Positions 5,801 through 31,725 of a stretch of DNA of 64,000 nt are shown here, piece after piece. The notes under the pieces were generated by a model. The model was not told the origin of the DNA and did no database searches. It saw only the letters and a list, made by a program, of their open reading frames with translations. Position numbers and translations under genes: made by a program. Origin of the DNA: an uncultured Candidatus Saccharibacteria bacterium. Its GTDB lineage: Bacteria; Patescibacteriota; Minisyncoccia; UBA9983. Within the stretch, counting starts at the first letter, position 1, and every line of letters begins with the position of its first letter. Location: the NCBI GenBank assembly GCA_964456855.1, contig CAYWCU010000001.1, positions 8,442 to 72,441 on the forward strand. Reading direction: 5' to 3'.

Positions 5801-6043
5801 GTGGCTATGGTCATAACCATAAACACTAAAAAAACACCGCGGGAATTTACAATAAACACCGAAACTCCCGTGCCGATTGAGGAAATTGAAAGGGAGATAA
5901 AGGGAATAGTCTTATCCATTGACGGCAAGGTGGATATACGCAAGGGAACAATGGTTCCTCCCGGAGCCACGATGACATTCTCATCAGATTATCTTGATAA
6001 TCTGATTGACGAATATTTCAAAACCTTGCCCGGATATGGGTGA
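5801..6043 (+). CDS. hypothetical small protein (80 aa)
   Basis: ORF preceded by a G-rich SD-like GGGGGTGG. Confidence 0.3.
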   Translation: MAMVITINTKKTPREFTINTETPVPIEEIEREIKGIVLSIDGKVDIRKGTMVPPGATMTFSSDYLDNLIDEYFKTLPGYG

Positions 6044-16101: not shown

Positions 16102-17028
16102 TTATTGTAGCACAATAATCTCCTCCTTCAAGTTTATACTGAATTTTTCACCAACCTTGCGTTTACAAATTTCAATCAATTCCAAAACATCGCCGGCTTT
16201 GGCGTCGCCAGTGTTGATAATAAAATTAGCGTGTTCTTCGGCTATCTTCGCCCCGCCGATTTGTTTGCCTTTTAATCCGCAGTCTTCTATTAAAAACCCG
16301 GTGGCAAGCTTTCCTCCCTTGATTTTTTCCGCCGGAATAAGCTCTAAAAAGTCTTTTTTGTTTTTTAACTCATCAATCTCAATATTTTTAAAAATACTCC
16401 CGGCGGAAGGATGTGCTGGAAGTTTTCCGCGCCGTTTTTTTAAAATATCGCTTATCGCTTCCCCGCTCTTTCGCTTCTCTCCTTTTTCAAGCGAGAACTC
16501 AACTTCCAGAATAATATCGTGATTGTCCTGATTCTTAAATTTGCTTCCACGGTAAACAAATTCGCAATCCTTGTTTGAGTATTTCTTCACCTCCCCGCTT
16601 TCGGTCAAAACTTCCACACTTTTCACAAACTCAGACATTGAATGACCATAAGCGCCGGCATTGCCCGTCACCGCCCCTCCGACGGTCCCGGGAATGCCCA
16701 CTCCCCATTCCAATCCGGACAGCCCGCAATCAATGGATCTTATTATCAACTGACCGAACAAAACACCCGCGCCCGCCAACATATTCAAGCCGTTCGCTTT
16801 AATCTTTATGTCTTTGATTTGAATAACCACTCCATTATATCCTTCGTCAGAAAATAATATATTGCTCCCTCCCCCAAGAATGAAAAATGGCAAGCCTTTT
16901 TCCTTGGCAAAATTTTTCGCTTCCAATAATTCCTCCCTTGATCCTGCAACGACAAAATACCTTGCCGCCCCGCCGATTCTAAAGGTGGAATGATTCGCCA
17001 ATATTTCATTTTCTTTTATTTCCAACAT
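16102..17028 (-). CDS. murB: UDP-N-acetylenolpyruvoylglucosamine reductase MurB
   Basis: FAD-binding N-terminus FRIGGAARYFVVAGSREELLEA...GLPFFILGGGSNILF; typical length. Confidence 0.85.
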   Translation of the reverse strand: MLEIKENEILANHSTFRIGGAARYFVVAGSREELLEAKNFAKEKGLPFFILGGGSNILFSDEGYNGVVIQIKDIKIKANGLNMLAGAGVLFGQLIIRSIDCGLSGLEWGVGIPGTVGGAVTGNAGAYGHSMSEFVKSVEVLTESGEVKKYSNKDCEFVYRGSKFKNQDNHDIILEVEFSLEKGEKRKSGEAISDILKKRRGKLPAHPSAGSIFKNIEIDELKNKKDFLELIPAEKIKGGKLATGFLIEDCGLKGKQIGGAKIAEEHANFIINTGDAKAGDVLELIEICKRKVGEKFSINLKEEIIVLQ

Positions 17029-17032
17029 CAGG

Positions 17033-17106
17033 TGGGCGTATCCCGACTCGAACGGGAGACCTCTACAATGTCAATGTAGCGCTCTAACCAACTGAGCTAT
17101 ACGCCC
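17033..17106 (-). tRNA. tRNA-Val (anticodon GAC)
   Basis: Minus-strand reading gggcgta...anticodon loop ttGACat...T-arm ggttcgagtcc...tacgccc. Confidence 0.8.
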
Positions 17107-17258
17107 TTCCTTTTTAAAAATTCAAACCCCTCCAGCCTCCGTAAATAATACCATTTTTTTTATTTTTTAGCACACCAAAGGGATATTCGGCAATCTTTTT
17201 CAATTCCCGAAATTGTGAATCGGCGGTGAGATTGTAACCTTTGCGCGAAAGTTTCATT

Positions 17259-17344
17259 TGGCGGAGGGTACAGGACTCGAACCTGTAAGGGATTGCTCCC
17301 GCCGGTTTTCGAAACCGGTGCCTTACCATTCGGCGCAACCCTCC
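17259..17344 (-). tRNA. tRNA-Ser (anticodon CGA), long variable arm, CCA encoded
   Basis: Minus-strand ggagggt...anticodon loop ttCGAaa...long variable arm...ggttcgagtcc...accctcc-g-cca. Confidence 0.8.
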
Positions 17345-17480
17345 AATTTTAGGCCCATTCGGCACAATACGCTGATTATATATCAAAAGAGCGGGTTTGA
17401 AAACCGAAAAACCCTTAACAAATGATTTTTTGGTGCTATAATGACGGCAGAAAAACAAGTCATCTTTAAGGAGGAATGAA

Positions 17481-17894
17481 ATGAAAAAAGAATTCAACGC
17501 CTGGGATTATGATGTGTACTCGGGCATTCTGGATGCGATAAAGACATTCAAGGTTTATGTGGGAATGTTGGATGCTCGCACTCAAGACGGAAAGGAAGGG
17601 TACCTTTGGATATTGAGAGAGTATGGAAAGCTCGGTCGCGCCGGAGAAATCTCCGTTTCCGAAGGAGACCACCTTGTCATTTATGGCAAGGACGGAAGCG
17701 TTATTTTCGACGAAACCATCCGCCCCGAACCGCCAATCGGCGCCGAAACTTACAGCTATATTTGCATCCACTGGACGCAGAAAGGGGTTTCCGCCGAGAA
17801 ATGGGCAGACTTCTTCATCCGCCCTGACGGAGAAACTCCCTACCGAGCGGTTCTTCTGAAAAGAAAAAAAGTAGGCGCAAAACAAGGGACGTGA
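17481..17894 (+). CDS. hypothetical protein (137 aa)
   Basis: Strong SD AAGGAGG 6 nt upstream of the ATG; TGA stop followed by a terminator. Confidence 0.5.
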   Translation: MKKEFNAWDYDVYSGILDAIKTFKVYVGMLDARTQDGKEGYLWILREYGKLGRAGEISVSEGDHLVIYGKDGSVIFDETIRPEPPIGAETYSYICIHWTQKGVSAEKWADFFIRPDGETPYRAVLLKRKKVGAKQGT

Positions 17895-17907
17895 AATTTC
17901 ACGTCCC
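17886..17907. terminator. rho-independent terminator (perfect 9-bp stem gggacgtga/tcacgtccc + T-run)
   Basis: gggacgtgaaatttcacgtccc ttttaac, between convergent genes. Confidence 0.6.
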
Positions 17908-17921
17908 TTTTAACTTCTTAC

Positions 17922-18413
17922 TTATCCTTTATCTTTGAGTTCTTGAGAGAGCTCAACGGACACAGCTATGTCCGTCTTGAGGCCTAACTCCTGCCTCAGG
18001 CCGTTCAAAACCATTATCACCTCAATAAAACGGTTTTGAATTTTCTCCCAGATGCCACCACGGGTGGCTAATCTGGCGATTATCAACTTTTCAATCGCCA
18101 GATAATCGCTCAGTCCGATTGCCCGGCGATTATAGAGGTTGGAGAGCCTCTCTGGGAAAAATCCCAAGAGAATAAGGAGGCTTCTAGCCGTTTCCTCCAA
18201 CCATTCTGGGTCTGTCTCAAAGACGGACATGACCATCAACTGATTCTCAAGCACAGTGGCCAGCTGTGCTTGATCCGAGCTCATATATAAAACCATGAGC
18301 TCGGCGAGGAATATTGCTACCCCCTCCTCATAAAATCCTATTTTTCCCATCTTCCGGGCGACCAGCCCAGAGAAAAATTTTTTCACTTCTTTTTCTTCAA
18401 TAATTTTTCCCAT
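17922..18413 (-). CDS. hypothetical protein (163 aa)
   Basis: ORF with an ATG start; alpha-helical. Confidence 0.45.
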   Translation of the reverse strand: MGKIIEEKEVKKFFSGLVARKMGKIGFYEEGVAIFLAELMVLYMSSDQAQLATVLENQLMVMSVFETDPEWLEETARSLLILLGFFPERLSNLYNRRAIGLSDYLAIEKLIIARLATRGGIWEKIQNRFIEVIMVLNGLRQELGLKTDIAVSVELSQELKDKG

Positions 18414-18472
18414 TTTGTCCTCCTTTTGGAAATTTGTTATTTAAAGATTTTTTAAATTGCGATTCTGATTTA

Positions 18473-18499
18473 AGTGTGGCACAAAAAAAGAAAAAGTCA
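18473..18499 (-). promoter_or_regulatory. second copy of the conserved TTGACTTTT...TTTTGTGCCACAC upstream motif
   Basis: Lies 60 nt upstream of the 17922-18413 gene start; see 12413-12440. Confidence 0.3.
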
Positions 18500-18568
18500 A
18501 GGTTTTTTCGCGCGGCAAACGCGCCCCCCGTGGATTTTTATAAGAAAATATGCTAAAAATAAAACATT

Positions 18569-18640
18569 GCCGGATCGTCTAATGGCAGGACACATGCCTC
18601 TGGAGCATGGTATCTAGGTTCGAGTCCTAGTCCGGCAGCA
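18569..18640 (+). tRNA. tRNA-Gln (anticodon CTG), putative
   Basis: gccggat...anticodon stem catgc / loop ctCTGga / gcatg...T-arm ctaggttcgagtcctag...tccggc-a. No CCA encoded and slightly irregular D-arm. Confidence 0.6.
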
Positions 18641-18756
18641 TTGAGCAAAGCGAGATGGTGGCGGGTTAGGACTTGAACCGTAGGCGCCTATTTTAAAAGA
18701 AGCGAAGCGATTATTAAAATAGCGCGTTTCGGAGCCCCGCCATGCGGGGAGAGAGG

Positions 18757-18776
18757 CGAGTCCTAGTCCGGCAGCA
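18757..18776 (+). repeat. exact 20-nt direct repeat of the tRNA-Gln 3-prime end (cgagtcctagtccggcagca), att-like
   Basis: Identical to 18621-18640; 136 nt separate the two copies. Confidence 0.7.
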
Positions 18777-18985
18777 AAATGGAGCGCGGTTATTGCGCAC
18801 GAGGGGCGTCAATGCCCGTGCGATTTGTTTTATCCAAAATAATATAGTCTACCGAGCGTAGCATCTAGAACAAAAAATCATCTGATTTGAGTTTTTTGAT
18901 TCTAGGTGCTAATATTGATAAACATCAAGATTAGTTAATGCTCTATGCGTGATAGTATCAAAACAATATAAGTTAAAGAAAAAAT

Positions 18986-19519
18986 ATGAGAATTACATAC
19001 ATACAAACGGGGGGCACAATTGATAAAGATTACCCCCGCGGGGAAACCAGTCATGGTTATGAATTTAAAATTACAGATCCGGCTGTAGAGGATATTATTC
19101 CAAAAATGAACGCGTTATTTGATTATGATATAATGTCGGTTCTCAAGAAAGACAGCTTGGACATTACTGATAATGATAGGGAAAAAATATACAAGGCGGT
19201 TAAAGGGGTAAATAATGATAAAATTATAATAACACACGGAACAGATACTATTTTAGAGACCGCAAAAAAATTATCTAAATTAAAAGATAAAGTGATTATT
19301 TTAACGGGAGCAATGTTACCGAACAAATTTACAACATCAGATGCTAGATTTAATATTGGCATGGCAACAGCTGCTGTGCAGATATTGGCCCCTGGAGTTT
19401 ACATCGCTCTTTATGGAAATGTGGTCCCATGGAATAAGTTTTCAAAAATACAAAAACAATTTAACGAAATGGACAAGATATCTATATTGCCAGGTTTCGG
19501 AACCGATAAGGAGGACTAA
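18986..19519 (+). CDS. L-asparaginase N-terminal-domain protein (truncated type-I asparaginase/GatD-like, 177 aa)
   Basis: Catalytic motifs TGGTI and HGTDT; lacks the C-terminal domain; sits in a conspicuously AT-rich stretch. Confidence 0.6.
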   Translation: MRITYIQTGGTIDKDYPRGETSHGYEFKITDPAVEDIIPKMNALFDYDIMSVLKKDSLDITDNDREKIYKAVKGVNNDKIIITHGTDTILETAKKLSKLKDKVIILTGAMLPNKFTTSDARFNIGMATAAVQILAPGVYIALYGNVVPWNKFSKIQKQFNEMDKISILPGFGTDKED

Positions 19520-19683
19520 AATTAAAAACGTTGCAGAACGATTGTATAATGCTATTGATTTAACGGCGCAATTTATTTTGAAAATTGACGAGAGAAGGCG
19601 CTTTTGCGCGCCTTAAATACAAGAATAGTTAAGCGGGAAAAACAACTTGCTGGCTTTGGTTCTGTATACTATAGTTAATATAT

Positions 19684-20190
19684 ATGGAGAACATTATTAT
19701 ATTAGGCATTATCCTCACTATCGCCGGATATATTATCCCATTATTTTTTAAAAAAGGCGGGAGAAGAAAAACTAAAAGAGAAAAAGAGGAATGGTTCCCG
19801 TACATGAAAAAGTCTTTTCTGCTTACCCGCGCAGAACATCAGTTTTTTAAAATTCTTGAACGAGCGGTGGGAGGTCAATATTATATTTTTCCCCAACTCG
19901 CTCCCGATAAAATAGTCCTCCTTAAAGGAAAGGGTTCTTTTAAGAGAGGGTATAGAAATAAGATTAGTAAAAAATCAGTGGATTTTGTTCTTTTTGACAA
20001 ACAAAACATCTCCCCCATTCTTGTTATTGAGCTGGATGACCCCACTCACCAAAGACCGGACAGAAAGGCGCGAGATAGCTTTTTAGATAAAGTATTGAAT
20101 CGTTGTGATATCCCAATTCTTCACACTCACTCAACCTTTAATGAGGAAGAGCTAAAAGCGCAGATTGAGGAAAAAATAAAAAATTTATAA
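19684..20190 (+). CDS. membrane-anchored DUF2726-like (restriction-endonuclease-fold) protein
   Basis: N-terminal TM helix; core EHQFFKILERA...YYIFPQ...VDFVLFD...ILVIELDD resembles DUF2726 / PD-(D/E)xK-like proteins. Tentative. Confidence 0.45.
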   Translation: MENIIILGIILTIAGYIIPLFFKKGGRRKTKREKEEWFPYMKKSFLLTRAEHQFFKILERAVGGQYYIFPQLAPDKIVLLKGKGSFKRGYRNKISKKSVDFVLFDKQNISPILVIELDDPTHQRPDRKARDSFLDKVLNRCDIPILHTHSTFNEEELKAQIEEKIKNL

Positions 20191-20432
20191 ATTTCCCAAA
20201 GTTTTTTAAATTTCAAATTTCCAGCCAACAACTCATCCAAAAAAGCGGAGTTGCCAAAACTTAATTGGTATCCAGAATGGATTAAATATAATTAAGAACC
20301 CTTACAAATAAGTAATCTTGATGGTTCTAATAAATCAAAAAAGAGTTTCCGGTCATGAGCCGAAGACCACTGTGCGGCATTTTTTCAAATTCGGCGCTAC
20401 CCAAAATCCGCTTATTAGGTTAAAATAAAGAA

Positions 20433-20963
20433 ATGAAATTTGAAGATGTAAATCAAAGGGAAATAAAAAATAAAATTGAAAATCTGCAATCGCGCGTGGA
20501 AGAAGCCACGGAGTTGGCGCCGAGCCAAGATGAATTTGAAGAAACAATGGAAAAGCAAAACGCCTTGGAAAAAAAATTCAAAAAGAAACAAATATCGTAT
20601 GAAGAACTCCAGCGAGGGTTATGTGAACTAGAAGACTCAACGGGCTCCGTCGAAACAAAGGAATTGACGGAACTGATGGATATTTTGAGAATTATCGGCC
20701 TTGATGAAAAAGAATTGAAGGAAATCGTCGCCCATGAAAACGACCATTGCGCGAAAGCGTTATCTTTCGGATTGGAAACTTTTTACAGAATACAATTCTT
20801 AAAGATAAAGAGAGATAACGGGGAGACCGATCTTGCCATCCTGCCGTCCGCTCATTTTCATTTGCCGGAAGACATGCCGGATGATGAAAAAATAAAAATT
20901 TTGGGAGAAATTGTGAGCGCCCCCGAAGAACTGAGTATCTATGACGAGAAAAAATTACAGTAA
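20433..20963 (+). CDS. hypothetical acidic coiled-coil protein with HENDH motif
   Basis: 176 aa ORF; AHENDH could be an HExxH site. Weak. Confidence 0.4.
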   Translation: MKFEDVNQREIKNKIENLQSRVEEATELAPSQDEFEETMEKQNALEKKFKKKQISYEELQRGLCELEDSTGSVETKELTELMDILRIIGLDEKELKEIVAHENDHCAKALSFGLETFYRIQFLKIKRDNGETDLAILPSAHFHLPEDMPDDEKIKILGEIVSAPEELSIYDEKKLQ

Positions 20964-21088
20964 GTTTTAAGTTCGCTCAAGTCCCCGCCTAACCGCAACC
21001 TCACCGTTCAATGAAAAATAAAAAATCGCCACCGCGCCGAAACCAACGAGCAAAAATGAATTGTTGAAATAAATAAAATGGAAAAATT

Positions 21089-21277
21089 ATGAATATATTT
21101 TCAATTTTAATGGGGCTGTTTATGGGACTAATCGGCGTATTGGTCTTCTTTCTGCTCATCAGGGAAATAGTTGTTTGGTATCTGAAAATCAATCAAATAA
21201 AAAAATTGCTGGAAAAAATAGAGGAAAATACGCGAAAAGTAAGCTTGGTGCAGGAAAAAAATAATGATAAACGGTAA
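21089..21277 (+). CDS. small single-TM protein (62 aa)
   Basis: Hydrophobic N-terminus followed by a charged tail. Confidence 0.3.
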   Translation: MNIFSILMGLFMGLIGVLVFFLLIREIVVWYLKINQIKKLLEKIEENTRKVSLVQEKNNDKR

Positions 21278-21313
21278 AAATTAAAAAAGTACCAAGAGGT
21301 ATTATTTGTATTT

Positions 21314-21508
21314 ATGGAATTTGAATCAGCCGAATTAAAAATGCATTCCGCTCTGCCAAAGGAGAAAAAAGAAATCTTTCTTCCTGAAAATGTTTGGGAG
21401 CAACTGCAAAATCTTGGCATTACGCCTAAAATGGTAAAAGGGTCTGTTCTTGATGTGGGAGCGGGAGATGCTGAATTCGCCAAGGTTTTTGCCGGCTTTA
21501 TTTTTTAG
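21314..21508 (+). pseudogene. SAM-dependent methyltransferase N-terminal fragment (64 aa)
   Basis: Ends with a motif-I-like VLDVGAGDAEFAKVFAG then a stop; no continuation downstream in any frame. Confidence 0.35.
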
Positions 21509-21698
21509 CGTTGTTTTGTCGGTTGTGAGTTATTTATTGAATGTATTGTTTAGAACGAAAAATCCTTGATTTCTTCTCCAAAAACCAAGAGAAGAAATCG
21601 GGCTAATGACCGAGGGCAAAACAACCGTAAAAAATAACTCGTGCCGGAAAAAATGGAGATAGAAATTAAAAAAACAGGGATAGTTGGGTGTTTTTATT

Positions 21699-22223
21699 AT
21701 GAAAATCTTATTTAAATTTTTGGAATTTGTGACTAAACTGCAGTATTTGGCGCAGCCGTCTTATGTCAAAGATGAGATTCGCCTGCAAAAAATGCTCCTG
21801 TGGAGCGCCAGGGTTTACTATTTTTATTCAGGACTTCTTTTTATTTTCATAAAGTCCGCTGATTATTTCAACATAAGCGTCCATTATTCGGTTTTCACCG
21901 CCCTTTTCGCGCTTCAGGCGGCGATACTATTCTACACACTGCAAACTTACAGAAGATTTTTTTTCGTTTCCGTCAGACTCAAGCGGAATTTTGCGTTGAA
22001 ATTATCCTTTTTCTTGTGGCTCCTGATTTTTTTTCTGATGAGCATTGAACAGATTATCGGCTACCCCATCTTCTCTGGAAGCATTCTGATTCTTATAGCA
22101 AGGGGAGGAGGCATCTTTTGGGGTAAATTACTGACGAACGGATTTTTTTGGGGCTTTTTCTTCGCCGTCATGGGAGTAATCGGAGAATTTTTATTGCGAA
22201 AAATCAACAATAATAAATTATGA
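21699..22223 (+). CDS. multi-pass membrane protein, hypothetical
   Basis: 4-5 hydrophobic helices; the track start is TTG at 21684; the first ATG is at 21699. Confidence 0.45.
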   Translation: MKILFKFLEFVTKLQYLAQPSYVKDEIRLQKMLLWSARVYYFYSGLLFIFIKSADYFNISVHYSVFTALFALQAAILFYTLQTYRRFFFVSVRLKRNFALKLSFFLWLLIFFLMSIEQIIGYPIFSGSILILIARGGGIFWGKLLTNGFFWGFFFAVMGVIGEFLLRKINNNKL

Positions 22224-23158
22224 AAAAACAAATTGTATTTATTCACGGGGGAGAAACTTTTGATTCGCATGAGGCCTATTTGGATTTTTTGAGGAATTGC
22301 GAATTTAACCCCGAAAAAGGGAAAGAAAAGAGATGGAAGGATTCCCTGCTGGAAAGTCTTGGAGATGATTTTGAGGTTATCGCGCCAACAATGCCGTGCA
22401 AGTTCAATGCCAAATATAAAGAATGGAAGATTTGGTTTGATAAGGTTGTCCCTTTTTTGAGAGATGGAGTGGTTTTAATCGGGCACTCTCTCGGAGGAAT
22501 TTTTCTCGCGAAATACTTGTCAGAAAACGATTTTCCCAAAAAAATCTCGGCGATATATTTGATTGCCGCCCCTTATGACGCCGAGGATTCGGAATATTCA
22601 CTGGCTGATTTCACACTTCCGAAAAGTTTGGAAAAACTGCGGAGACAGGGCGGAAAAATTTTTATTTATCATAGCGAAGACGATCCCGTGGTTCCGTTCT
22701 GGGATTCGGAAAAGTATCTCCGGGCGTTGCCGGACGCGGAAAAAACAATTTTCAAGGACAAGGGCCATTTCCTGCAAGAGGAGTTTCCGGAAATGGTTGA
22801 AAGTGTTAAGAAAATACCATCTGGATCGGCGCAAAAAACGCTAAAATTCAAAGAACATCTCGTGCCACTCATATTGTCTGGCGAAAAAACCGTCACTTGG
22901 CGGCTTTTTGACGATAAGGATTTGCGGGTCGGAGACAAGGTGAATCTGATAAATGCGGACTCAAGAGAAATATTCGGCAGCGCCAAGCTGACGGAAATCA
23001 AGGAAAAGCCTTTTGGTGAAATAACGGATGAAGATTTTGATGGGCACGAAAAATTTGAAAGCGAAAAAGAAATGTATGAAACATACAAAAAATACTACGG
23101 AGGCAAATTGAGCAAAGATACGACAGTCAAAATAATCAAGTTCAAGTTGGATGAATAA
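22220..23158 (+). CDS. alpha/beta-hydrolase (RBBP9/YdeN-like serine hydrolase) fused to C-terminal ASCH domain
   Basis: N-terminus IVFIHGG...VLIGHSLGG (GxSxG). C-terminus LVPLILSGEKTVTWRLFDD...VGDKV is typical ASCH. ATGA overlap with the upstream gene. Confidence 0.6.
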   Translation: MKKQIVFIHGGETFDSHEAYLDFLRNCEFNPEKGKEKRWKDSLLESLGDDFEVIAPTMPCKFNAKYKEWKIWFDKVVPFLRDGVVLIGHSLGGIFLAKYLSENDFPKKISAIYLIAAPYDAEDSEYSLADFTLPKSLEKLRRQGGKIFIYHSEDDPVVPFWDSEKYLRALPDAEKTIFKDKGHFLQEEFPEMVESVKKIPSGSAQKTLKFKEHLVPLILSGEKTVTWRLFDDKDLRVGDKVNLINADSREIFGSAKLTEIKEKPFGEITDEDFDGHEKFESEKEMYETYKKYYGGKLSKDTTVKIIKFKLDE

Positions 23159-23161
23159 GAT

Positions 23162-23755
23162 TTGGAAAATAACACTCATATGAAGAAAATTATTATCATC
23201 GGCACAATACATGGCGGTTCCACTCCAAAAGAAGAGTTGGAGGAGGTTTTGAATAATATAAATCCGGATCAAGTGTTGGTGGAACTTTCCTATGAAGAAT
23301 TGAATAACCGACCGAGAGAAAATTCCATCCGGGATGAAATGTTTGCCGCTTACGATTGGGCAGTTAGAAATAAAAAGAAGACGGATTGCTTTGACATTGA
23401 AAGCAACACGCTGAAAAAGGGTGTAACGGGAAAAGAACTGGAGTTTTTGAAACTTGAAATGAAAGTCAAGGAACTCCTTAAGGGTTATTCATGGAAAGAC
23501 TTGAACAAAGAGGAACCGTGGGAAATACCCGAGGTCGCTGAACTGGAAAATGAGATTATTGAAAAATACTTTAATGCCGAAAAACAAAAAGAAAGAGAAT
23601 ATAAGATACTGGAAATTGCCCGCGGAAAATTGATTGACGGCGTGAATGTAATCGTCACTGGCGCCGGGCACCTGTCCTTTTTCAAAAAAGAAATGCCGGA
23701 GGCGATATTTCCTCTCCGAGATTGGAGAGAAACGGGTAAGAGCGCAAAACAATGA
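23162..23755 (+). CDS. TraB/GumN-family-like protein
   Basis: N-terminus KIIIIGTIHGGS...PDQVLVELS resembles TraB/PrgY family starts. Tentative. Confidence 0.4.
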   Translation: MENNTHMKKIIIIGTIHGGSTPKEELEEVLNNINPDQVLVELSYEELNNRPRENSIRDEMFAAYDWAVRNKKKTDCFDIESNTLKKGVTGKELEFLKLEMKVKELLKGYSWKDLNKEEPWEIPEVAELENEIIEKYFNAEKQKEREYKILEIARGKLIDGVNVIVTGAGHLSFFKKEMPEAIFPLRDWRETGKSAKQ

Positions 23756-24144
23756 ACAATAAAGAAGATTATTTTGAAAAATTGGTTGATGAAGCCATTT
23801 TGGCGTTGCCGGAAAAAATAAAGAAAGCGATGGATAATGTGGCTTTTGTGGTTGAGGAGGAGGCGCGGTGGAAAAAGGCCGGAGAAATGGGGATTAAAAA
23901 GAATGAAGTGTTAATCGGATTATACGAGGGTATTCCGAAAATTAAGCGGGATGACGGATATTTTGGGGTGTTGCCGGACAAGATTACCATTTTTAAAAAA
24001 CCGATAGAGAAATTAAGTGGCGGAAGCGGAGAAAAATTGAAAAAACTTGTCAACGAAACTGTGTGGCATGAAGTCGGACACCACCTGGGGCTTGATGACG
24101 CGGAGATTAAAATTCTTGAAGCAAAAAGGCGGAGAAGGGGTTGA
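23752..24144 (+). CDS. minimal zincin-like metallopeptidase family protein (HEVGHHLG)
   Basis: HExxH at the C-terminus with a following D; ATGA overlap with the upstream gene. Confidence 0.55.
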   Translation: MNNKEDYFEKLVDEAILALPEKIKKAMDNVAFVVEEEARWKKAGEMGIKKNEVLIGLYEGIPKIKRDDGYFGVLPDKITIFKKPIEKLSGGSGEKLKKLVNETVWHEVGHHLGLDDAEIKILEAKRRRRG

Positions 24145-24224
24145 GGGAAATTCGTAAAAACAAAACCAATACCGAACTTTCGCGCCGGCTTTCTTTAAAA
24201 CTCCTGCGGGGGTAAAATAAACAA

Positions 24225-24551
24225 ATGAAACGAGAAATAATCACATTGTCGGGAAACACGAGATTCAGAGATCGATTTAAGGAAGTGGAAAGAAAACTGA
24301 CATTGGAAGGCAAAATCGTCCTCCCGCCGGCAATATACGGCAAAAGCGAAGGGATTGAACACTCCCCCACCACAATCAAACTTCTATACGAATTGCATCT
24401 CGCCAAAATAGACATTTCCGACGGCATTTTCGTGATTGATGTTGGCGGATACATAGGCGATTCCACCCGGAAAGAAATAAAATACGCGAAAAACAAAAGG
24501 AAATTCGTAAGATACTATTCAAGAGATTTTAAAGACACGAAAATGAACTAA
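24225..24551 (+). CDS. hypothetical protein (108 aa), possible Rossmann-like nucleoside 2-deoxyribosyltransferase-like fold
   Basis: ORF; IFVIDVGGYIGDSTRKEI is weakly suggestive only. Confidence 0.35.
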   Translation: MKREIITLSGNTRFRDRFKEVERKLTLEGKIVLPPAIYGKSEGIEHSPTTIKLLYELHLAKIDISDGIFVIDVGGYIGDSTRKEIKYAKNKRKFVRYYSRDFKDTKMN

Positions 24552-24605
24552 CACCCCTAAAACCTGTTATCGCGACAAAACAAAAATACCGAACATGCCA
24601 ATTCT

Positions 24606-24866
24606 ATGAAAAACATCTGTGTTTACATATTAAAGTGCGGTGACGGCACGCTTTACACCGGTTCAACCGTGGATTTGGCGAAACGGCTTCGGGAGCATAA
24701 TGAGCTGAAAAGCGGGGCGAAATACACAAAGGCGCGCCGCCCGGTGGCTCTCGCGTATCAAGAAAAATGCAAAACACTCGCGCTCGCCCGCGAACGCGAA
24801 GCGGAAATCAAACGAATGACCAGAAGCGAAAAACTCGCCCTCGTGAAAAAGCCCAAAAAGCCATAA
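24606..24866 (+). CDS. GIY-YIG nuclease-family protein (short standalone form, 86 aa)
   Basis: [27 protein letters not shown]...[10 protein letters not shown] matches the GIY-YIG core. Confidence 0.75.
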
Positions 24867-24935
24867 AATAAAAGGAAAAGATGGGCTTCCCTATCGGCGG
24901 AAGCCCTTGAATCACGCTGGAAAAAATCCTTTAAA
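24810..24935 (+). repeat. repeat copy R1 (3-prime end of GIY-YIG gene + downstream hairpin)
   Basis: Core aaacgaatgaccagaagcgaaaaactcgcNctcgtgaaaaa is shared with R2 and R3; the downstream segment ...gcttccctatcggcggaagcc...tgaatcNcgctgg is shared with R3. Confidence 0.7.
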
Positions 24936-24992
24936 TATGGGATAGTTAAAATATCAAAGGCAAAGACCGAAAAAGGATTTTGCAGAATAATT

Positions 24993-25703
24993 ATGGATAT
25001 TCCTCAAGACATTCTTAATAAATTTATAGTAAGAGAAGATTATTTGGAGTGGGTAAATAAAGAAACGTCCATTATCGCGTACTTGGATTTGACTAATATG
25101 TTCCACTGGCAAGATGTTTTGGGGTGGAAATTTCGCATAGAAGATTTAGCCGAGCAACTTTTTAGTTTTTCAAACATTAAGGAAATTAAAGTGTATTATG
25201 GCTTGAACGAAAGAGATATAAGGAACTCCGAGGCCTTTCATGCTCGCATAAGAAAAACAGGGGCAATTTTAAGAAAAAAGCCCATGAAATTTATTAAAAA
25301 AAACATTAATGAAGCCATGTTTTTCCAACGCCGCACAATGACATTATTTGACGGAGAGCAGTACATTAAAGAAAAAATTAATGAACTGATACAAGCGCTT
25401 AATGAGTCTGGAATAATCATTGAAGAGCCTAAATGTAATTTTGATGTTGAAATGGCAATGGATATGATTGATGATACAGAAAAAATGACAGCAGTGATGC
25501 TTTTTTCCGGAGATTCAGATTTAAAAGAACCCTTAGAGAGATTAAAGATAAAAGGAAAGAATATTGGTGTGGTGGGGGTGCGCGGAAAAGTGGCGGGAGA
25601 ATTGCACGAAATTAAGAACAAATATATTGATTTTGGTAAGTTTTATACAGGGAAAAGGGTCTATACAAAAAGCGAAAATCCCGCTTTGGGCGGGACCGCG
25701 TGA
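24993..25703 (+). CDS. NYN/LabA-like (PIN-related) nuclease-domain protein
   Basis: AYLDLTNMF...CNFDVEMAMDMIDD...AVMLFSGDSDLKEPLERLKIKGKNIGVVG, typical of NYN/LabA. Confidence 0.65.
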   Translation: MDIPQDILNKFIVREDYLEWVNKETSIIAYLDLTNMFHWQDVLGWKFRIEDLAEQLFSFSNIKEIKVYYGLNERDIRNSEAFHARIRKTGAILRKKPMKFIKKNINEAMFFQRRTMTLFDGEQYIKEKINELIQALNESGIIIEEPKCNFDVEMAMDMIDDTEKMTAVMLFSGDSDLKEPLERLKIKGKNIGVVGVRGKVAGELHEIKNKYIDFGKFYTGKRVYTKSENPALGGTA

Positions 25704-25725
25704 TTAGTAGGATTGCTCCTACGCC

Positions 25726-25835
25726 ATCAATATAGCATACCAAGTTGCTAGTATCAAGAGAATTGTGGATAAGTGAAAACGAATGACCAGAAGCGAAAAA
25801 CTCGCACTCGTGAAAAAAAACAAAAAGGCCGTTGG
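25726..25835 (+). repeat. repeat copy R2
   Basis: tcaatatagcatac...gtggataagtgaaaacgaatgaccagaagcgaaaaactcgcactcgtgaaaaaa; an in-frame TGA lies just before the shared core. Confidence 0.7.
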
Positions 25836-25866
25836 AAATTAAAGGTTTTGAGTATAACATAAGAAA

Positions 25867-26268
25867 ATGAAAAAGGATTATTTAGAATGGCATAAGAAAA
25901 AAGAGAAAATTGACTGTAAAAATAAGCATATTTTTTTTCATGAACGAGAAGTTTGGTGGTGTTCTCTTGGTGTGAATGTCGGTTATGAGCAAGACGGAAG
26001 AGGAGACAATTTTTCCCGCCCCGTGGTTATATTGAAAAAATTTAATCTTGATATTTGTTTGGTTGTTCCGCTTACGACAAGCAAGAAAACGGGAAAGTAT
26101 TATTTTTCAATTGGAGATGTTGAGGGGAAAAACGCGTCGGCTGTATTGTCTCAGATAAGACTTATTGACCAGAAAAGGTTTTTTAAGAAAGTGGAGATGA
26201 TTGATGAAGAGATTTTTGATTGCTTAATTGACGCTGTTGTTAGTGTTAATTTTAAAAAAGGGGCTTAA
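25867..26268 (+). CDS. PemK/MazF-family toxin-like protein (no adjacent antitoxin ORF seen)
   Basis: REVWWCSLGVNVGYEQDG...RPVVILKK...CLVVPLTTS...SAVLSQIRLID matches the MazF/PemK fold pattern. Confidence 0.65.
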   Translation: MKKDYLEWHKKKEKIDCKNKHIFFHEREVWWCSLGVNVGYEQDGRGDNFSRPVVILKKFNLDICLVVPLTTSKKTGKYYFSIGDVEGKNASAVLSQIRLIDQKRFFKKVEMIDEEIFDCLIDAVVSVNFKKGA

Positions 26269-26276
26269 AACAGTTT

Positions 26277-26302
26277 GCCCCCGCTCCTTGCGGAGCGGGG
26301 GC
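26277..26302 (+). terminator. GC-rich hairpin (gcccccgctcc-ttgc-ggagcgggggc)
   Basis: Perfect 11-bp stem immediately after the toxin gene stop. Confidence 0.55.
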
Positions 26303-26350
26303 GAGGCCGAGGCCGTTTGTATGTTCATATTATCAAATCCAACCCAAAAG

Positions 26351-26500
26351 TCAATAGAGCATATCAACAGGGTGTGGATAAGTGAAAACGAATGACCAGA
26401 AGCGAAAAACTCGCGTTCGTGAAAAAGGCCGTTAGGTAAGAAGGAAAGGACGAGCTTCTTTATCGGCGGAAGCCGGTGAATCGCGCTGGGAAAACCCCAT
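26351..26500 (+). repeat. repeat copy R3
   Basis: tcaatagagcatat...gtggataagtgaaaacgaatgaccagaagcgaaaaactcgcgttcgtgaaaaaggccgtt...agcttctttatcggcggaagccggtgaatcgcgctggg. Confidence 0.7.
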
Positions 26501-26622
26501 AAAATATGATATATTTAGGGAAATTATGGAAAAAGACGGGAAAACAAACCCGGCCTCGCGACAAGCGCAAAAATTAGCTAACGCTATCAGTGTATCAACC
26601 GATAAGCTTTTGAAATAGAAAT

Positions 26623-27786
26623 ATGGCAAACAAAAATCTTACAAATGCAAAACGGGCAAAGAACGATGAGTTTTATACCCAGTTCGGCGATATCCAAAAA
26701 GAGATTGAGGCGTATTTGGAATACGATCCCGATGTATTTCGGGGCAAGGTGGTGTATTGTAATTGTGATGATCCGTTTGAGAGCAACTTCTTTCGCTATT
26801 TCGTACTCAATTTCAACAAGCTTGGATTGAAACAGCTTATCACCACCAGCTATAAACCTTCACCTATAGCCAACACGCAACTGGGATTGTTTGGCGATGA
26901 CAAGACCCTTGCGAAATCAAAAGGCCGTCCTAAGGTAAATGCTAACAAATTTATTATCAACGAAGTGGGTGATATGGATGGCGACGGCGAGTTCAATTTG
27001 AAAGATGTTGCCATACAGTTAAGGGCAAATAAACACAACGAATGGGAGCCCCTAGAAAATAATGGCGATTTCCGTAGTGATGAATGTATAAATCTACTTA
27101 AACAATCCGATATCGTGGTAACCAATCCGCCGTTCAGCTTATTCCGAGAATATGTAAAACAACTTATGGAGTATAAGAAAAAATTTGTGATCATCGGAAA
27201 TATGAATGCGATCACTTATAAAGAAATATTTCCTTTAATTAAAGACAATAAAATATGGCTTGGGGCTGGTAAAAACGATGGACGAAATGTGTGGTATCAA
27301 GTTCCTAATAATTACGAAAATTTTCACAAAGAGGAAAATGGCAAGAAATACGCATTTGTTGCGGGAACAATCTGGTTTACCAATCTTGATCACGGACGAC
27401 GCCATCAACCGTTGCCACTAATGACTAAAGCAGAAGTGATTAAATTTGGTACAAAAAAACCGTTCGAAAAATATGACAACTATAATGCAATCGAGGTATC
27501 ATTCGTTAAATACATTCCAAGTGACTACAAAGGTGTGATGGGTGTGCCAATCAGTTTTCTTGGTAAATATTCCCCCGATCAATTTAAAATTGTTGGAATG
27601 TGTGAAAATGAAGATTTGTATAAATTAAAAACAAAAGTTTATACAACGGCGGAGTGTAAGCAGGCATATTTAGATAAATTTGGCAAAAACGGAACTTATG
27701 ATTTGAACGCAAGTGGGGTGGTTATTCGAAACGGTTTATTGGAAAAAGTTTACCAAAGGATACTTATTAAACATAAGAAAAAATAA
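26623..27786 (+). CDS. EcoRI-methylase-family N6-adenine DNA methyltransferase
   Basis: N-terminus [14 protein letters not shown]...VVYCNCDDP and catalytic VTNPPFSL (NPPF), the hallmark pattern of the M.EcoRI/M.RsrI family. Confidence 0.7.
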
Positions 27787-27787
27787 T

Positions 27788-28954
27788 ATGAAAACAAACT
27801 TAAAAACTACCATTACCGTTAAAGATATCTGCGAAGGGTTTGTCTATAATGAACTTGAAGGCAAGGGCCTGTTTGGCTTGTCTGGCACGCTTACTATTCA
27901 GCCGGAGTACCAACGAAACTATATCTATGCCTTAGACGGCGGTAAAAAAGAGGTCGCCGTCATTGAGTCATTGCTCAAAGGTTACCCGATAGGTTTGATT
28001 TATTTCAATAAAGTAAACGACAAGAATTTAGAGGTTTTGGACGGACAACAACGCATTACTAGCGTTGGGCGATTTGTTAATGGTAAGTTTGCAATCAAGG
28101 ATGAAAACGGAATGCAATATTTCAGTACTATGGCAGAAGACAAGAAGTCCAAGATTTTAAAAACAAAACTTCTCATTTACGAATGCGAAGGTACTGAAAG
28201 TCAGATTAAAGAATGGTTTAAGACAATCAACATTGCAGGTGTCCCACTTAAACCCCAAGAATTTCTCAACGCTATTTATTCCGGACCATTTGTAACACTC
28301 GCAAAGGAAGAGTTTAGCAATAGCCAAAACGCAAATACGCAAAAATGGAGCGCGTACATATCGGGTGTCGTTAATCGCCAAGATTTTCTGGAGCAAGCGC
28401 TTGATTGGGTAAGCAAGGGAAACATTGACGATTATATGAGCCGTCATCGCAAAGATACAAATATTAAAGAGCTAAAAAATTATTTCAACAGCGTAATTGA
28501 TTGGGTTTCTGGGGTGTTTATAGATGTTGAAAGTGAAATGCGTGGTCTTGAGTGGGGGCGAATGTATAAGGAATATCACAAAAACGCTTATGATCCAAAG
28601 AAAGTTTCAAGGGAAGTTCACAAACTTTACGCCGATTCATATATCAAAAACCGTAAAGGTGTTTTTGAGTATATTCTCGGCGGTTCAACTGATACGAAAT
28701 TACTAAATGTCAGAGTATTTGACGAGGCAACTAAAAAGTCGGTTTATGCAAAGCAGACAAAGAGCGCAAAAGCTGGTGGTAAATCAAATTGTTCGCATTG
28801 CGCAATGGGTCATGATGCTAACAAAGAAAAAATTTGGGATCTTTCTGAAATGGATGCAGACCATGTTAGTGCTTGGAGTAAAGGTGGCGCGACAGATATA
28901 AAAAATTGTGAGGTGTTGTGTAAGACGCATAATCGGGCGAAAGGAAATCGATAA
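27788..28954 (+). CDS. DUF262 (ParB/Srx-like, DGQQR) + C-terminal HNH nuclease protein, GmrSD-like architecture
   Basis: LDGQQRITS motif in the N-terminal domain. C-terminal CSHC...[12 protein letters not shown]...[15 protein letters not shown] is an HNH/His-Me finger. The ATG lies 1 nt after the methylase stop; the track ORF starts at an upstream GTG. Confidence 0.65.
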
Positions 28955-29009
28955 AAAATGTAAGATGTCATGCAAGAAGTGTAGTAGAAGGAAATTGGGG
29001 AATAAATTT

Positions 29010-30080
29010 ATGAAACAAGCAAATCAAAAATTAAAAGCAATTGATTTTTTCTGCTCAGGCGGAGGAATGAGTTTTGGTTTGCAACAAGCTGGAATAGATG
29101 TCATTGCTGGAATTGATTTTGATTCTGATTGTAAAGATACATACGAGGCAAATATAAAAGGAGCAGAATATATTCTTGCTGATGTTGAAGAATTAAATGC
29201 CGAGGATTTATCAAAAAAAATAGACATAAAAAAGAATGATGATGATCTTATTTTGGTTGGATGTAGTCCGTGCCAGTATTGGACAATTATTCGGACAAAT
29301 AAGAGTAAGTCTCAAAAATCAAAAAATTTGCTTCATGAATTTCATAGATTTGTTAAGTATTACAATCCTGGATATGTTGTTGTAGAAAATGTCCCGGGGA
29401 TTTTAAATAAACATAAAGAAAGCGGGCTAAATAAATTTGTAAAGGACTTAGAAAAGCAAGGGTATGCAGTTCGCTATGAAGTGGTGAATTTAAATGAGTA
29501 TGGAGTGCCAGAAACAAGAAAAAGATTTTCATTGATAGCTAATAGAGTAACTAAAGATGAATTATTTCCTAAAGCAAATAATTCTTGTCCAGTGGTCTCT
29601 GATTTTTTGGGCGAAAAAAACAGTTTTTATAAAATACCCGCTGGGCACAAGGATCCTACGGATTTAATGCATACAACAGCCAAATTAAGTAAAAAAAATA
29701 TAAAAAGGTTAAAATTGACACCTAAAAACGGTGGCACACGACAGGCATGGGCGGATACTGATCTACAAATTAATGCATATAAAAAGAAAAATTCCAATAT
29801 ATCATTCAGGGACACATATGGACGAATGTCTTGGGATAAACCAGCACCAACTATTACTACAAAATTTTTTAGCATATCAAACGGTAGATTTGCACATCCA
29901 AATGAAAATAGAGCAATTTCCATAAGAGAAGGAGCGACATTACAAACTTTTCCTAAAACATATAAATTTATCGGAGGTAGTATTGCTACAATCGCACGAA
30001 TGATTGGAAATGCTGTTCCTCCGCTTTTTGCTAAACAAATTGGAAAAACTATAATCAAAAATCATTATGACAAAAAATAA
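29010..30080 (+). CDS. DNA (cytosine-5)-methyltransferase
   Basis: Motif I FFCSGGGMSFG, motif IV GCSPCQYWT, motif VI ENVPGIL, motif X GNAVPP. An alternative start is at 28965. Confidence 0.85.
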   Translation: MKQANQKLKAIDFFCSGGGMSFGLQQAGIDVIAGIDFDSDCKDTYEANIKGAEYILADVEELNAEDLSKKIDIKKNDDDLILVGCSPCQYWTIIRTNKSKSQKSKNLLHEFHRFVKYYNPGYVVVENVPGILNKHKESGLNKFVKDLEKQGYAVRYEVVNLNEYGVPETRKRFSLIANRVTKDELFPKANNSCPVVSDFLGEKNSFYKIPAGHKDPTDLMHTTAKLSKKNIKRLKLTPKNGGTRQAWADTDLQINAYKKKNSNISFRDTYGRMSWDKPAPTITTKFFSISNGRFAHPNENRAISIREGATLQTFPKTYKFIGGSIATIARMIGNAVPPLFAKQIGKTIIKNHYDKK

Positions 30081-31725
30081 TAAAACAAAACTTCAGATGA
30101 CTTTTGACCCATTGGTTATAGATGACCTTGGTGCAAAACTTTATTCTACTTTACCGCCGATAATTTCTGAATTAATTGCAAATGGTTATGATGCTTGTGC
30201 AAAAAAAGTATTTATAGAGCTAACAGGGGCGGGTGAAGATAAAAAAATTATTATTACAGATGATGGTTTCGGTATGAGTTTCGATGAGATTGATGATAAA
30301 TATTTACGAATAGGTCGTAAAAGACGAGAAGTTGCCGATGAAAAAATTGAATGTGAAAGACTCCCAATTGGAAAAAAGGGGTTAGGTAAATTAGCTTTTT
30401 TTGGTATTGCAAAAAAAGCAGTTATAAAAACTGTAAACAATGGAGAAGAGATTATATTTGAAATGAATTGGGACAAAATTCAAGATACCCCAGAAGGGGA
30501 TGATTATGAGCCAGTTTTTAGCAGAAAAAAAACTACTGAAAATAATGGTACAGAGATTATTTTATCTGAGATAGACAGAAAATCTGATTTTAAAACAGAG
30601 AGTCTTAAAATTAGTATTTCAAACTATTTTATCTTTGATGAAGATTTTAAGGTTTTTATCAAAGATGATTCAATGGGAAACTTTGAGGAGATTGATAATG
30701 AAATTAGATACAAACAAGGTGACAGGGGGAAAGATTTTTCATGGTCGTTTCCAGAAGTTGTCAAAAAACTTGAATTGGAAAAAGAATTTCCGTTTGCCCT
30801 AGATATTAAGGGTAAAATTATTTTATTTAATTTACCAGTTAAAAATAAGCTAAGAGGTGTTACTTTATTTTCTAGAAAAAAATTAGTAAGTCTCCCAGAA
30901 TCATTTCCAGTTCAGGGATCGAGTCATTTCTATCAATATTTAACTGGTTGGCTAGAAATAGATTTTATAGATAATCTAAAGCCAGATGTTATTGCCACAA
31001 ATAGAAGTAGTCTTAATTGGAATGATGAAAATCTTGAACAATTACAATTATTTTTGGAAAAAATAATAAATTATATACACAGAGAATGGAGAGTTCTCAT
31101 AGAAAACAGAAAAGAGAAAAGAGTGAAAGAGAAATATGGCGTAGATATTCCAGTATGGAGAGAAACCAACAAAAATAATCCTACAATTGTTAAAAATATT
31201 GATAAACTTGCTAAAGTATTTAATGAACCAGAAAAAATTGGCGAAAGTGAGGCGATAGATGTTTTAGGAATTGTATATGGTCTTGCTCCAGAAAATGCCG
31301 ATTTTGTACTCTGGTCTGGATTACACCAAAAAATAACGGAAAATACTCTTATAAAAGAATCTTTTTTTGCTGGGAAATATTTAGCAGCATCACGTGAAGC
31401 GGTACAAATTTATAATGAAACTGTGCAAAGTGTGTCTGGTTACGATGAAGCCGATTATGCTTTAATGGAAAAATCATACGGAAAAGAAGGACATAAGAAA
31501 ATTTGGGTTACAAACAAGTCTAATGATAATGAGAAAAATATAGATGAAGGGCAAAAACTAATTTCACAAGGAATAATGGTTGGTTTTAAGAATCCTGGTG
31601 TTAGCCACACAAGTCTCACGAAAGGACTGCAAAATAATGACTTTTCTCCACGAAATTGTTTGGATATATTAAGTACAATATCTTATTTATTTGACAGACT
31701 AGAGAAACGAAAACAACCAAGATAG
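30067..31725 (+). CDS. GHKL-superfamily (MORC/MutL-like HATPase_c_3) ATPase, R-M-associated
   Basis: N-box ELIANGYDA and G1 box IIITDDGFGMS. Overlaps the Dcm stop by 14 nt. No nuclease motif recognised. Confidence 0.6.
   Translation: MTKNNKTKLQMTFDPLVIDDLGAKLYSTLPPIISELIANGYDACAKKVFIELTGAGEDKKIIITDDGFGMSFDEIDDKYLRIGRKRREVADEKIECERLPIGKKGLGKLAFFGIAKKAVIKTVNNGEEIIFEMNWDKIQDTPEGDDYEPVFSRKKTTENNGTEIILSEIDRKSDFKTESLKISISNYFIFDEDFKVFIKDDSMGNFEEIDNEIRYKQGDRGKDFSWSFPEVVKKLELEKEFPFALDIKGKIILFNLPVKNKLRGVTLFSRKKLVSLPESFPVQGSSHFYQYLTGWLEIDFIDNLKPDVIATNRSSLNWNDENLEQLQLFLEKIINYIHREWRVLIENRKEKRVKEKYGVDIPVWRETNKNNPTIVKNIDKLAKVFNEPEKIGESEAIDVLGIVYGLAPENADFVLWSGLHQKITENTLIKESFFAGKYLAASREAVQIYNETVQSVSGYDEADYALMEKSYGKEGHKKIWVTNKSNDNEKNIDEGQKLISQGIMVGFKNPGVSHTSLTKGLQNNDFSPRNCLDILSTISYLFDRLEKRKQPR

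Follow-up and report, generated by a model that had tools for sequence, protein, structure and literature searches.

With moderate confidence, we regard positions 18641-18776 of the window (the whole 64-kb stretch of DNA that was analysed) as a miniature site-specific insert, here called family A, which carries neither genes nor a recombinase, sits in the 3' end of a tRNA-Gln gene and forms a putative folded attachment site. The module is apparently a miniature and previously undescribed relative of tRNA-targeting mobile elements; no published description of such modules was found in the literature searched. It is conserved, folds in a strand-specific manner, is variably present, can be stacked and has arms that copy the neighbouring tRNA.

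The tRNA-Gln(CUG) gene lies on the plus strand at 18568-18638 (Rfam tRNA model, 58.4 bits; ARAGORN gives 18568-18639). It is complete by itself, with a U1-A72 pair and discriminator G73, and is followed by 'CA' instead of an encoded CCA. The end of this gene is repeated. The 20-mer CGAGTCCTAGTCCGGCAGCA, spanning tRNA positions C56 to G73 plus CA, occurs in exactly two plus-strand copies in the window, one within the tRNA (18621-18640) and one downstream (18757-18776), which agree at 20/20 positions. This duplication had been claimed in the initial annotation and is confirmed by the window search and by shuffling, which produced no such repeat in 100 shuffles. No third site within three mismatches exists in the window, nor was a copy of a relative's variant of the 20-mer found elsewhere in it. 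Only tRNA-Gln, among the nine tRNAs of the window, has a duplicate of its 3' end.

The downstream copy might have belonged to a second functional tRNA. Neither ARAGORN nor the Rfam tRNA model (E up to 1) identifies a tRNA at 18641-18780 on either strand, and the copy is read as a displaced or duplicated tRNA-Gln 3' end. The tRNA 3' end is repeated directly in att-like fashion, as was proposed, with copy 1 inside an intact tRNA-Gln and copy 2 downstream. Judged from their sequence, the two copies (denoted X) form an att-type direct repeat of the T-loop-to-3'-end kind, in which the tRNA has been kept intact and the other copy appears to have been pushed 136 nt downstream. This class of att sites in tRNA-targeting integrative elements was reportedly described by Williams in 2002.

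The insert comprises 136 nt, and the 116 nt that separate the two X copies hold no open reading frame. Its layout is the tRNA ending in X, a linker, X', a core (P2, P3 and GAGAGG) and X, where X is tRNA positions 56-75 and X' is an inverted copy. The linker (18641-18655, plus strand, TTGAGCAAAGCGAGA) contains a mini-hairpin, GCAAAGC (18645-18651), and is homologous to other family-A linkers. The left arm X' (18656-18679, plus strand) is the 5' strand of helix P1 and an inverted, diverged copy of tRNA-Gln positions 52-75; X, linker and X' together fold into a hairpin of -40 kcal/mol. The minus-strand string at this place, GGTTCAAGTCCTAACCCGCCACCA, which occurs once in the window, had been taken for a fragment of another tRNA. 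In-register comparison identifies it as an inverted copy of the end of tRNA-Gln itself, since 19/24 positions are identical, three of the five differences still permit G.U pairing and the homologous left arm in L006 (L numbers denote related loci) matches its own tRNA-Gln end at 21/24. The apparent 'CCA' of X' is the gene's 'GCA' with one substitution.

The core begins with P2 (18678-18732, plus strand), a long conserved hairpin with the invariant segments GAACCGTAGGCGCCTATT and AATAG(T/C)GCGTTTCG, delimited by alignment A1, RNAalifold and pair counts. P3 (18735-18749, plus strand; MFE fold) is a short variable hairpin with the stem CCCCGC/GCGGGG in the window. The conserved junction AGAGAGG (18750-18756) follows P3 directly and leads into the right arm, the second copy of X, which is the 3' strand of P1. 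A covariance model matches the whole module at 18653-18776 with 104 bits. Beyond the module, a terminator-like hairpin and T-run occupy 18796-18831 on the plus strand (RNAfold -14.3 kcal/mol, then ATTTGTTTT), the only good example in the window. A simple terminator scanner did not flag this hairpin.

The three-helix fold spans 18653-18776. P1 pairs X' with the downstream X over ~20 bp; this helix has the same duplex sequence as the tRNA gene at its 3' end, and the conserved two-hairpin core is closed by it. The discriminator position is mismatched in P1 of the window and of L049. Folding depends strongly on the strand: the window module reaches -56.6 kcal/mol (z = -6.0) on the plus (tRNA) strand and -39.2 kcal/mol (z = -2.8) on the minus strand, and 20/21 modules, drawn from five or more core families, fold better on the strand of the tRNA. 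The share of paired cells in alignment A1 is 94.8%, compared with 37-55% after sliding the partners, and the covariation score is 0.257, against 0.05-0.07. Six of the 12 P1 pairs in this alignment are altered on both sides, pair counting reveals two invariant G.U pairs in P2, and P3 occurs as three wholly different yet complementary stems (CCCCGC/GCGGGG, GCAAG/CTTGC in L006 and ACAAATC/GATTTGT). The junctions GAA and GAGAGG are conserved in family A. The general order X - loop - X' - core - X applies to every family, and in each a long, nearly unbroken hairpin is formed by the 3' part of the tRNA together with linker and left arm. The strand-biased folding and the conserved G.U pairs fit a role as RNA equally as well as one as single-stranded DNA. 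Rfam 15 run on 16500-20000 (E up to 1) returned tRNA-Gln only, the module matching no family, and at gathering score in 18 related loci it gave nothing besides tRNA and one LOOT RNA. A hammerhead-like motif on the minus strand (CGAAAC) was discarded, as a check by eye found no CUGANGA partner.

The same architecture recurs widely. Searching one genome of each species for the 20-mer yielded 43 loci, nearly all at Patescibacteria tRNA-Gln (CUG or UUG) and two labelled Bacteroidota. About 17 of the 43 have extra partial copies of the tRNA 3' end, direct and/or inverted and mostly no further than 250 nt downstream; usually an inverted T-arm/acceptor fragment comes first and a direct copy second. 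L006 has a tRNA-Gln 100% identical to that of the window and a homologous spacer with compensatory changes in two hairpins. Family A was sampled in JGI metagenomes with the exact 18-mer GAACCGTAGGCGCCTATT, which is common to the window and L006. This sample consists of 10 distinct sequences, and its cores are ~90% conserved among the metagenome modules, a value that overstates core conservation because the query was an exact 18-mer.

The family-A core is found behind tRNA-Gln (L053, L058/L061 and L006), tRNA-Arg(UCU) (L056), tRNA-Lys(CUU) (L062) and other tRNA 3' ends (L049, L064, L050/L054 and L051). In every case the right arm, after GAGAGG, is a direct copy of the neighbouring tRNA from C56 to N73+CA, and the left arm, which precedes the conserved GAACC, repeats the end of that tRNA in inverted form. 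The cores of L049 and L058 are ~92% identical; their arms are mutually unrelated, each matching its own tRNA over 19-20 nt. Four or more further core families (B to E) have the same layout of linker, inverted arm, hairpins and direct copy, and spacer sizes cluster at ~100-220 nt. One MAG has two copies (L035 and L042), and arrays of modules are present in L069, L032 and L047. A strong terminator hairpin lies between tRNA and module in L049, L062 and L064. A search with covariance model R1 found no further family-A copies in the window, nor in the tRNA-Gln loci beyond those already known.

The 163-aa flank protein served to find near relatives of the window. In L066, whose flank protein is 82% identical, the promoter region, tRNA-Gln and flanks correspond to those of the window; behind its tRNA-Gln there is no module and no partial copy of at least 11 nt, making this an empty site. 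L069 (78% identical) has three tandem modules of different families, each ending in the tRNA 3' end, and its contig breaks within the fourth copy. The contig of L070, at 84% identity, stops precisely at the 3' end of its tRNA. Among loci labelled Saccharibacteria, a conserved trailer directly follows tRNA-Gln in L019, L021, L023 and L039 and follows the second copy in L047 and L031. Since the trailer of the last two sits after the second copy, the original tRNA-Gln 3' end and its flank were pushed rightward. There are hints in the sequences that incoming DNA supplies the new 3' end of the tRNA, as in att-type exchange. These are (i) A73 in the displaced copies of L069 and in the L066 tRNA, where the intact L069 tRNA has G73 (a single-base argument); (ii) the resemblance of module linkers to native tRNA-Gln trailers; (iii) the chimeric tRNA-Gln of the window and L006, which has the D loop of the nearest relatives' type (GGCAGG) and positions 27-75 identical to the L023/L045 type, these positions of the window tRNA differing from L066, L069 and L070. 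Classic duplications of ~45 nt from the anticodon arm also occur at tRNA-Gln (L011, L028, L031 and L041); this gene is a general hotspot.

To the right of the module a variable accessory region extends to CreD (18777-36596, plus strand), as defined by the GC profile, Pfam and synteny with L066. The GC check over 18-36 kb confirmed a drop, to 0.30-0.43 across 19-35 kb against 0.43-0.50 in the flanks. The asparaginase-domain-only and DUF2726 genes that had been described here are both seen by Pfam, the former as an N-terminal domain only (177 aa). They are followed in order by hydrolase-ASCH, zincin, NYN, MazF, an EcoRI-type methylase (full-length by Pfam), GmrSD-HNH and a C5 methylase, and finally by HATPase/Ymh, DUF2130, ParA-like and ABC-F genes. 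L066 and the window share the order and orientation of the 163-aa gene, tRNA-Gln and, further right, CreD-Obg-FtsX-FtsE-PrfB-tRNA-Thr. Between tRNA-Gln and CreD, L066 has ~2 kb with a 315-aa gene and a 210-aa serine hydrolase where the window has ~17.8 kb, and this comparison with a relative that has no island bears out the accessory character of the region. An inversion of 18.6-39 kb, suggested by PrfB-FtsE-FtsX lying beside tRNA-Gln in distant relatives, was rejected because L066 has the window's order and orientation.

The accessory DNA is not one insertion at the tRNA, because the extra DNA flanks a conserved hydrolase on both sides. This hydrolase-ASCH gene (22220-23158), the homologue of the serine hydrolase of L066, is conserved in relatives; ~3.4 kb of extra DNA precede it, including asparaginase-N and DUF2726, and ~13.4 kb follow, with zincin, NYN, MazF, the two methylases, GmrSD-HNH, HATPase/Ymh, DUF2130, ParA-like and ABC-F. 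L006 has yet another gene set ahead of the same hydrolase. Both 20-mer copies lie left of the accessory genes and the window holds no third, which contradicts the initial annotation's placing of the left edge of an island at the repeat pair. The pair is not an island boundary because it encloses a 116-nt module that is also found without the island and behind other tRNAs. What survives of the tRNA-targeting island scar proposed there is the att-like repeat with accessory DNA to its right, but the repeats bound just 116 nt. The region at 18777-36596 is a hypervariable, accessory and separate stretch beside the tRNA-Gln hotspot, not the content of the repeat pair.

Some loci have cargo between the repeats. 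In L030 these enclose a single DUF6309 gene together with a terminator and X'-core-X; the module of L018 is the same but lacks this gene. Repeats starting in the T loop bound 3.9 kb of cargo that includes a DGR-type reverse transcriptase in L021 and 2.6 kb of cargo in L035; no recombinase was found within either cargo. The earlier remark that no integrase is visible in the window agrees with Pfam, which identified no integrase or other recombinase, transposase or reverse transcriptase among 45 window ORFs that include nearly all of at least 170 aa. Six large serine recombinases taken from related loci had no tblastn match in the window. Genes for such recombinases lie 0-3 kb downstream of tRNA-Gln in L012, L020, L023, L031 and L039; they are not consistent neighbours of modules and are absent from the window, and were rejected as the module enzyme. 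No gene consistently neighbours the modules, as ORF clustering in 50 loci gave conserved housekeeping neighbours only. Scans of viral contigs with the 20-mer, the inverted 24-mer, the family-A 18-mer and the tRNA 3' half gave one chance hit and no true match. A viral origin was rejected on this basis, and these scans contained no free, circular or viral form of the module.

The main rival to a mobile insert is a resident, tRNA-linked non-coding RNA of ~125 nt, transcribed with or just after tRNA-Gln, with a closing helix that would mimic the minihelix of acceptor and T stem, and also the 3' end, of the neighbouring tRNA. RNase P, the 3' trimming enzymes and the CCA-adding enzyme would process or stabilise such an RNA, and the duplication would be a functional requirement rather than a scar. 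The far better folding on the tRNA's strand, the invariant G.U pairs in P2 and the conserved core and junctions are all consistent with it, as are the end of P1 at the discriminator plus CA, with the discriminator mismatched in the window and L049, and the location of the terminator-like hairpin after the module. Mobility would be compatible with this reading, as an RNA of this kind may be encoded by a mobile element. We nevertheless consider it rather unlikely. The module is absent in the close relative L066 and L069 has three of different families; strong terminators separate tRNA from module in L049, L062 and L064; several unrelated cores have the same architecture; and no Rfam family matches. 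Moreover, processing of a tRNA-mimic helix would not require it to match the neighbouring tRNA.

A decayed integrase-bearing island is a still weaker candidate and, in our view, an improbable one. It would make the 20-mers an attL/attR-type scar and the 116 nt random leftovers, with the AT-rich region as the island or its neighbour. Duplications of tRNA 3' ends are a hallmark of integrative elements (PMC9897764; bioRxiv 10.1101/2020.12.28.424599), tRNA-Gln has the classic 45-nt anticodon-arm duplications in L011, L028, L031 and L041, the adjoining region is accessory relative to L066, and large serine recombinase genes lie within 3 kb downstream of tRNA-Gln in the five loci named above. However, the 116 nt are not random, being conserved in sequence and structure across genomes and tRNAs, and this conservation of the spacer largely refutes the scar. 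The clustering of spacer sizes at ~100-220 nt, the lack of an integrase remnant or distal repeat in the window and the extra DNA on both sides of the conserved hydrolase gene also argue against it.

It is very improbable that a local replication accident created the repeats, that is, fold-back priming or template switching at a terminator or mini-hairpin that, in the absence of any mobile element, yields X - X' - X as an inverted triplication. The near-continuous palindrome of tRNA 3' part, linker and left arm, whose centre in all families is the linker or terminator loop, is what such an event would leave, but the conserved ~77-nt core in unrelated genomes and behind different tRNAs, the arrays of different cores and the gene-carrying version in L030 are left unaccounted for. 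We dismiss the idea that copy 2 is part of a second unusual tRNA (split, permuted, intron-containing or minus-strand): the minus strand TGGCGGG...CCCGCCACCA could pair like an acceptor stem and the 5' acceptor strand of the tRNA can pair with copy 2 in the full-transcript fold, but neither strand has a tRNA there according to ARAGORN and Rfam, the upstream tRNA-Gln is already complete, and TGGCGGG belongs to hairpin P3, so that this 'acceptor' pairing is not conserved, since L006 replaces P3 with GCAAG/CTTGC.

Several known devices were also set aside. A primer-binding site, in which the left arm would pair with mature tRNA and its CCA, was rejected because the register with 22/24 pairing is that of the gene's ...GCA, not ...GCCA. 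Classical transposase target duplication, IS200/IS605-type ends, TnpB/IscB guide RNAs, IS110 bridge RNAs and retron and DGR RNAs each have one feature in common with the module, but none accounts for both the arms that copy the target and the lack of an enzyme gene.

Our proposed reading of the module is that of a strand-specific, folded attachment site in its integrated form, comparable to those of CTXphi and integron attC. When single-stranded, its stem would mimic the chromosomal target, the tRNA gene's 3' end, and a recombinase encoded elsewhere would exchange strands between the folded module, alone or with a gene, and the tRNA gene. Successive insertions at the tRNA would push older modules downstream and give rise to arrays, and some copies would carry a gene, as cassettes do. 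Insertion may be a fixed 20-bp target duplication or the exchange of a homologous segment; the sequences are compatible with either. Re-setting of the arms at a new tRNA could, as a conjecture, proceed by exchange via X and then correction of the X-loop-X' quasi-palindrome. The mobile insert is weakened as an explanation because no recombinase was identified, no free form was found and the re-setting of the arms is conjectural. To our knowledge, 136 nt is also very small compared with any known integrative element, a further point against it. More tentatively, we raise the possibility of a cassette system of Patescibacteria, in which tRNA 3' ends would serve as docks for folded hairpin modules of 110-220 nt, strand-specific attachment sites that bring zero to a few genes, a recombinase would act in trans, arms would be re-matched to new tRNAs and arrays would seed hypervariable, defence-rich regions next to tRNA genes.

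The unit that emerges is a gene-less hairpin of ~120-200 nt whose stem copies its target, whose core is kept between tRNAs and which forms stacked arrays. Should it prove to be a genuine insertion system, it would offer integrase-poor, reduced Patescibacteria a route by which to gain and shuffle accessory genes beside tRNAs, would be the third natural case of folded single-strand recombination sites, after integron attC and CTXphi, and would account for many of the 'partial tRNA' calls made in such genomes. Should it instead be an RNA gene, it would represent a class of tRNA-end mimic that is new. In both cases the modules serve as ready markers of recombination hotspots in metagenome-assembled genomes, whose contigs frequently end at them (L069 and L070).

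tRNA genes are classic landing sites for mobile DNA, and the known elements bring their own integrase and kilobases of cargo. With such tRNA-targeting elements (tycheposons, bioRxiv 10.1101/2020.12.28.424599; tRNA gene fragments, PMC9897764) the module shares (i) an intact tRNA with a displaced direct 3' copy; (ii) a repeat that runs from the T loop to just past the discriminator; (iii) repeated insertions that push older ones downstream; (iv) a hypervariable, defence-rich region beside the tRNA; (v) an empty site in a relative (L066). It differs in that its segment is 116 nt without integrase or cargo, its repeats do not bound the accessory genes, and it has an inverted target copy and a conserved structured core that is found behind different tRNAs with re-matched arms.

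The structural fit to a MITE is ambiguous: the module has inverted arms (18656-18679 and 18757-18776), a 20-bp direct repeat and no ORF, but its right arm doubles as direct repeat, and we know of no classical MITE whose arms copy its target. As with MITEs, multiple related copies are found at different sites (Gln, Arg, Lys and other tRNAs). Cis-mobilisable elements of streptococcal ICEs and the pdif modules of Acinetobacter plasmids are short segments flanked by recombination sites, inverted in the case of pdif, with the enzyme provided in trans; they carry genes and measure hundreds to thousands of bp. The sites of the present module, unlike theirs, copy the end of a tRNA, and its core is conserved and folded.

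Integron attC sites are the second precedent. Both are imperfect palindromes with bulged bases and a strand bias that are read by structure, with the recombinase outside the cassettes (as we infer for the module), and both systems have units with zero or one gene arrayed beside a fixed docking site. Unlike in integrons, no IntI gene or attI was seen with the module; unlike attC, the stem copies the docking site (the tRNA end), there are no R/L boxes and the T-loop-like ends face the hairpin inside.

In CTXphi, the closest precedent, attP(+) has two inverted dif-like sites that imitate dif once folded as single-stranded DNA, and a single pair of strands is exchanged (PMC3442271). Integration is irreversible, as the double-stranded prophage cannot excise; arrays form, and the inverted attP2/attP1 sites stay at the junction (PMC3442271). 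The module likewise has inverted target-like sites ~80-90 nt apart, which can anneal on one strand into a target-mimicking stem with a strand bias, and it resembles the integrated phage in the succession of inverted copy, spacer and direct hybrid copy at the junction and in the tandem arrays. As in CTXphi, the site would be masked in double-stranded DNA, so insertions would persist. The target differs, being a tRNA 3' end rather than dif, and no phage genome or rolling-circle replication gene is attached to the module. CTXphi-type elements exploit Xer, and for the module single-stranded integration is a prediction from the analogy.

The tRNA-Gln of the window (18568-18638) looks chimeric when its sequence is set against the tRNA-Gln genes of five other loci (L066, L069, L070, L023 and L045). 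Its D loop, GGCAGG, is the same as that of its nearest relatives, L066, L069 and L070. Positions 27-75, which cover the anticodon arm and the T arm, differ from those relatives at approximately 12 sites but match the tRNA-Gln genes of distant genomes exactly. Of the nine tRNA genes in the window, six end in N73-CA (N73 being the discriminator position) with no encoded CCA, and the CA that follows N73 is always part of the direct repeats of the modules, the gene-less structured inserts whose arms copy the tRNA 3' end.

One MAG carries the same module on two contigs, at L035 4083-4276 and L042 50-243, the copies sharing 91% identity; one copy lies behind tRNA-Gln(UUG) and the other behind a decayed tRNA-like remnant ending GGCAGCA.

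Large serine recombinase genes are found at five tRNA-Gln loci (L012 1906-3537, L020 5363-6748, L023 2452-3803, L031 6688-7998 and L039 3093-4538), in each case 0-3 kb downstream and reading towards the tRNA. A further large serine recombinase gene abuts tRNA-Ser in the close relative L066 (10980-12713); none is present at the matching place in the window.

In L021 a 3.9-kb insert (1951-5805) separates tRNA-Gln from a displaced 3' copy, and the tRNA trailer has been duplicated together with it. A 348-aa reverse transcriptase of the DGR type, bearing LGNxxSQ and YADD motifs, is encoded in the insert together with a 615-aa gene product; no integrase is present. Seven loci labelled Saccharibacteria (L019, L021, L023, L031, L039, L046 and L047) share a conserved sequence approximately 150 nt after tRNA-Gln, which reads GTGAGAC..ACCGAGAC...GAGTCATGGGCNCGAAC...ATTGCATACCTGCTGAGAGCAGTA. 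It matched no Rfam family and may be an unannotated RNA.

The accessory region that follows the module of the window has internal repeats of its own. Direct repeats of two families lie between genes at 24797-26517 and flank the NYN and MazF-like genes: one family is of 54 nt (at 24797, 25764 and 26373; 80-96% identity) and the other of 77 nt (at 24872 and 26441; 79% identity). These repeats look like recurring cassette boundaries within the region.

At 41890-46499 the window has another variable site with tRNA genes on either side, where genes for an M16 peptidase, a Cys/Met PLP enzyme and an M42 peptidase lie between a tRNA-Thr pair and a tRNA-Met/Asp/Met cluster; the same tRNA groups are only about 0.7 kb apart in L066. 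The curve of cumulative GC skew is lowest near 18 kb and highest near 39 kb, and gene-strand switches coincide with both extremes; tRNA-Gln lies at a divergent switch. A 192-aa protein with a Cas2-like PaaX_M domain is encoded at 50942-51520, and no CRISPR array was noticed near it. In the locus L005, the stretch directly after tRNA-Gln (2025-2324) forms a large palindrome, in which telomere-like G-rich repeats of the TTAGGG/GGGGTT type are followed by their complement.
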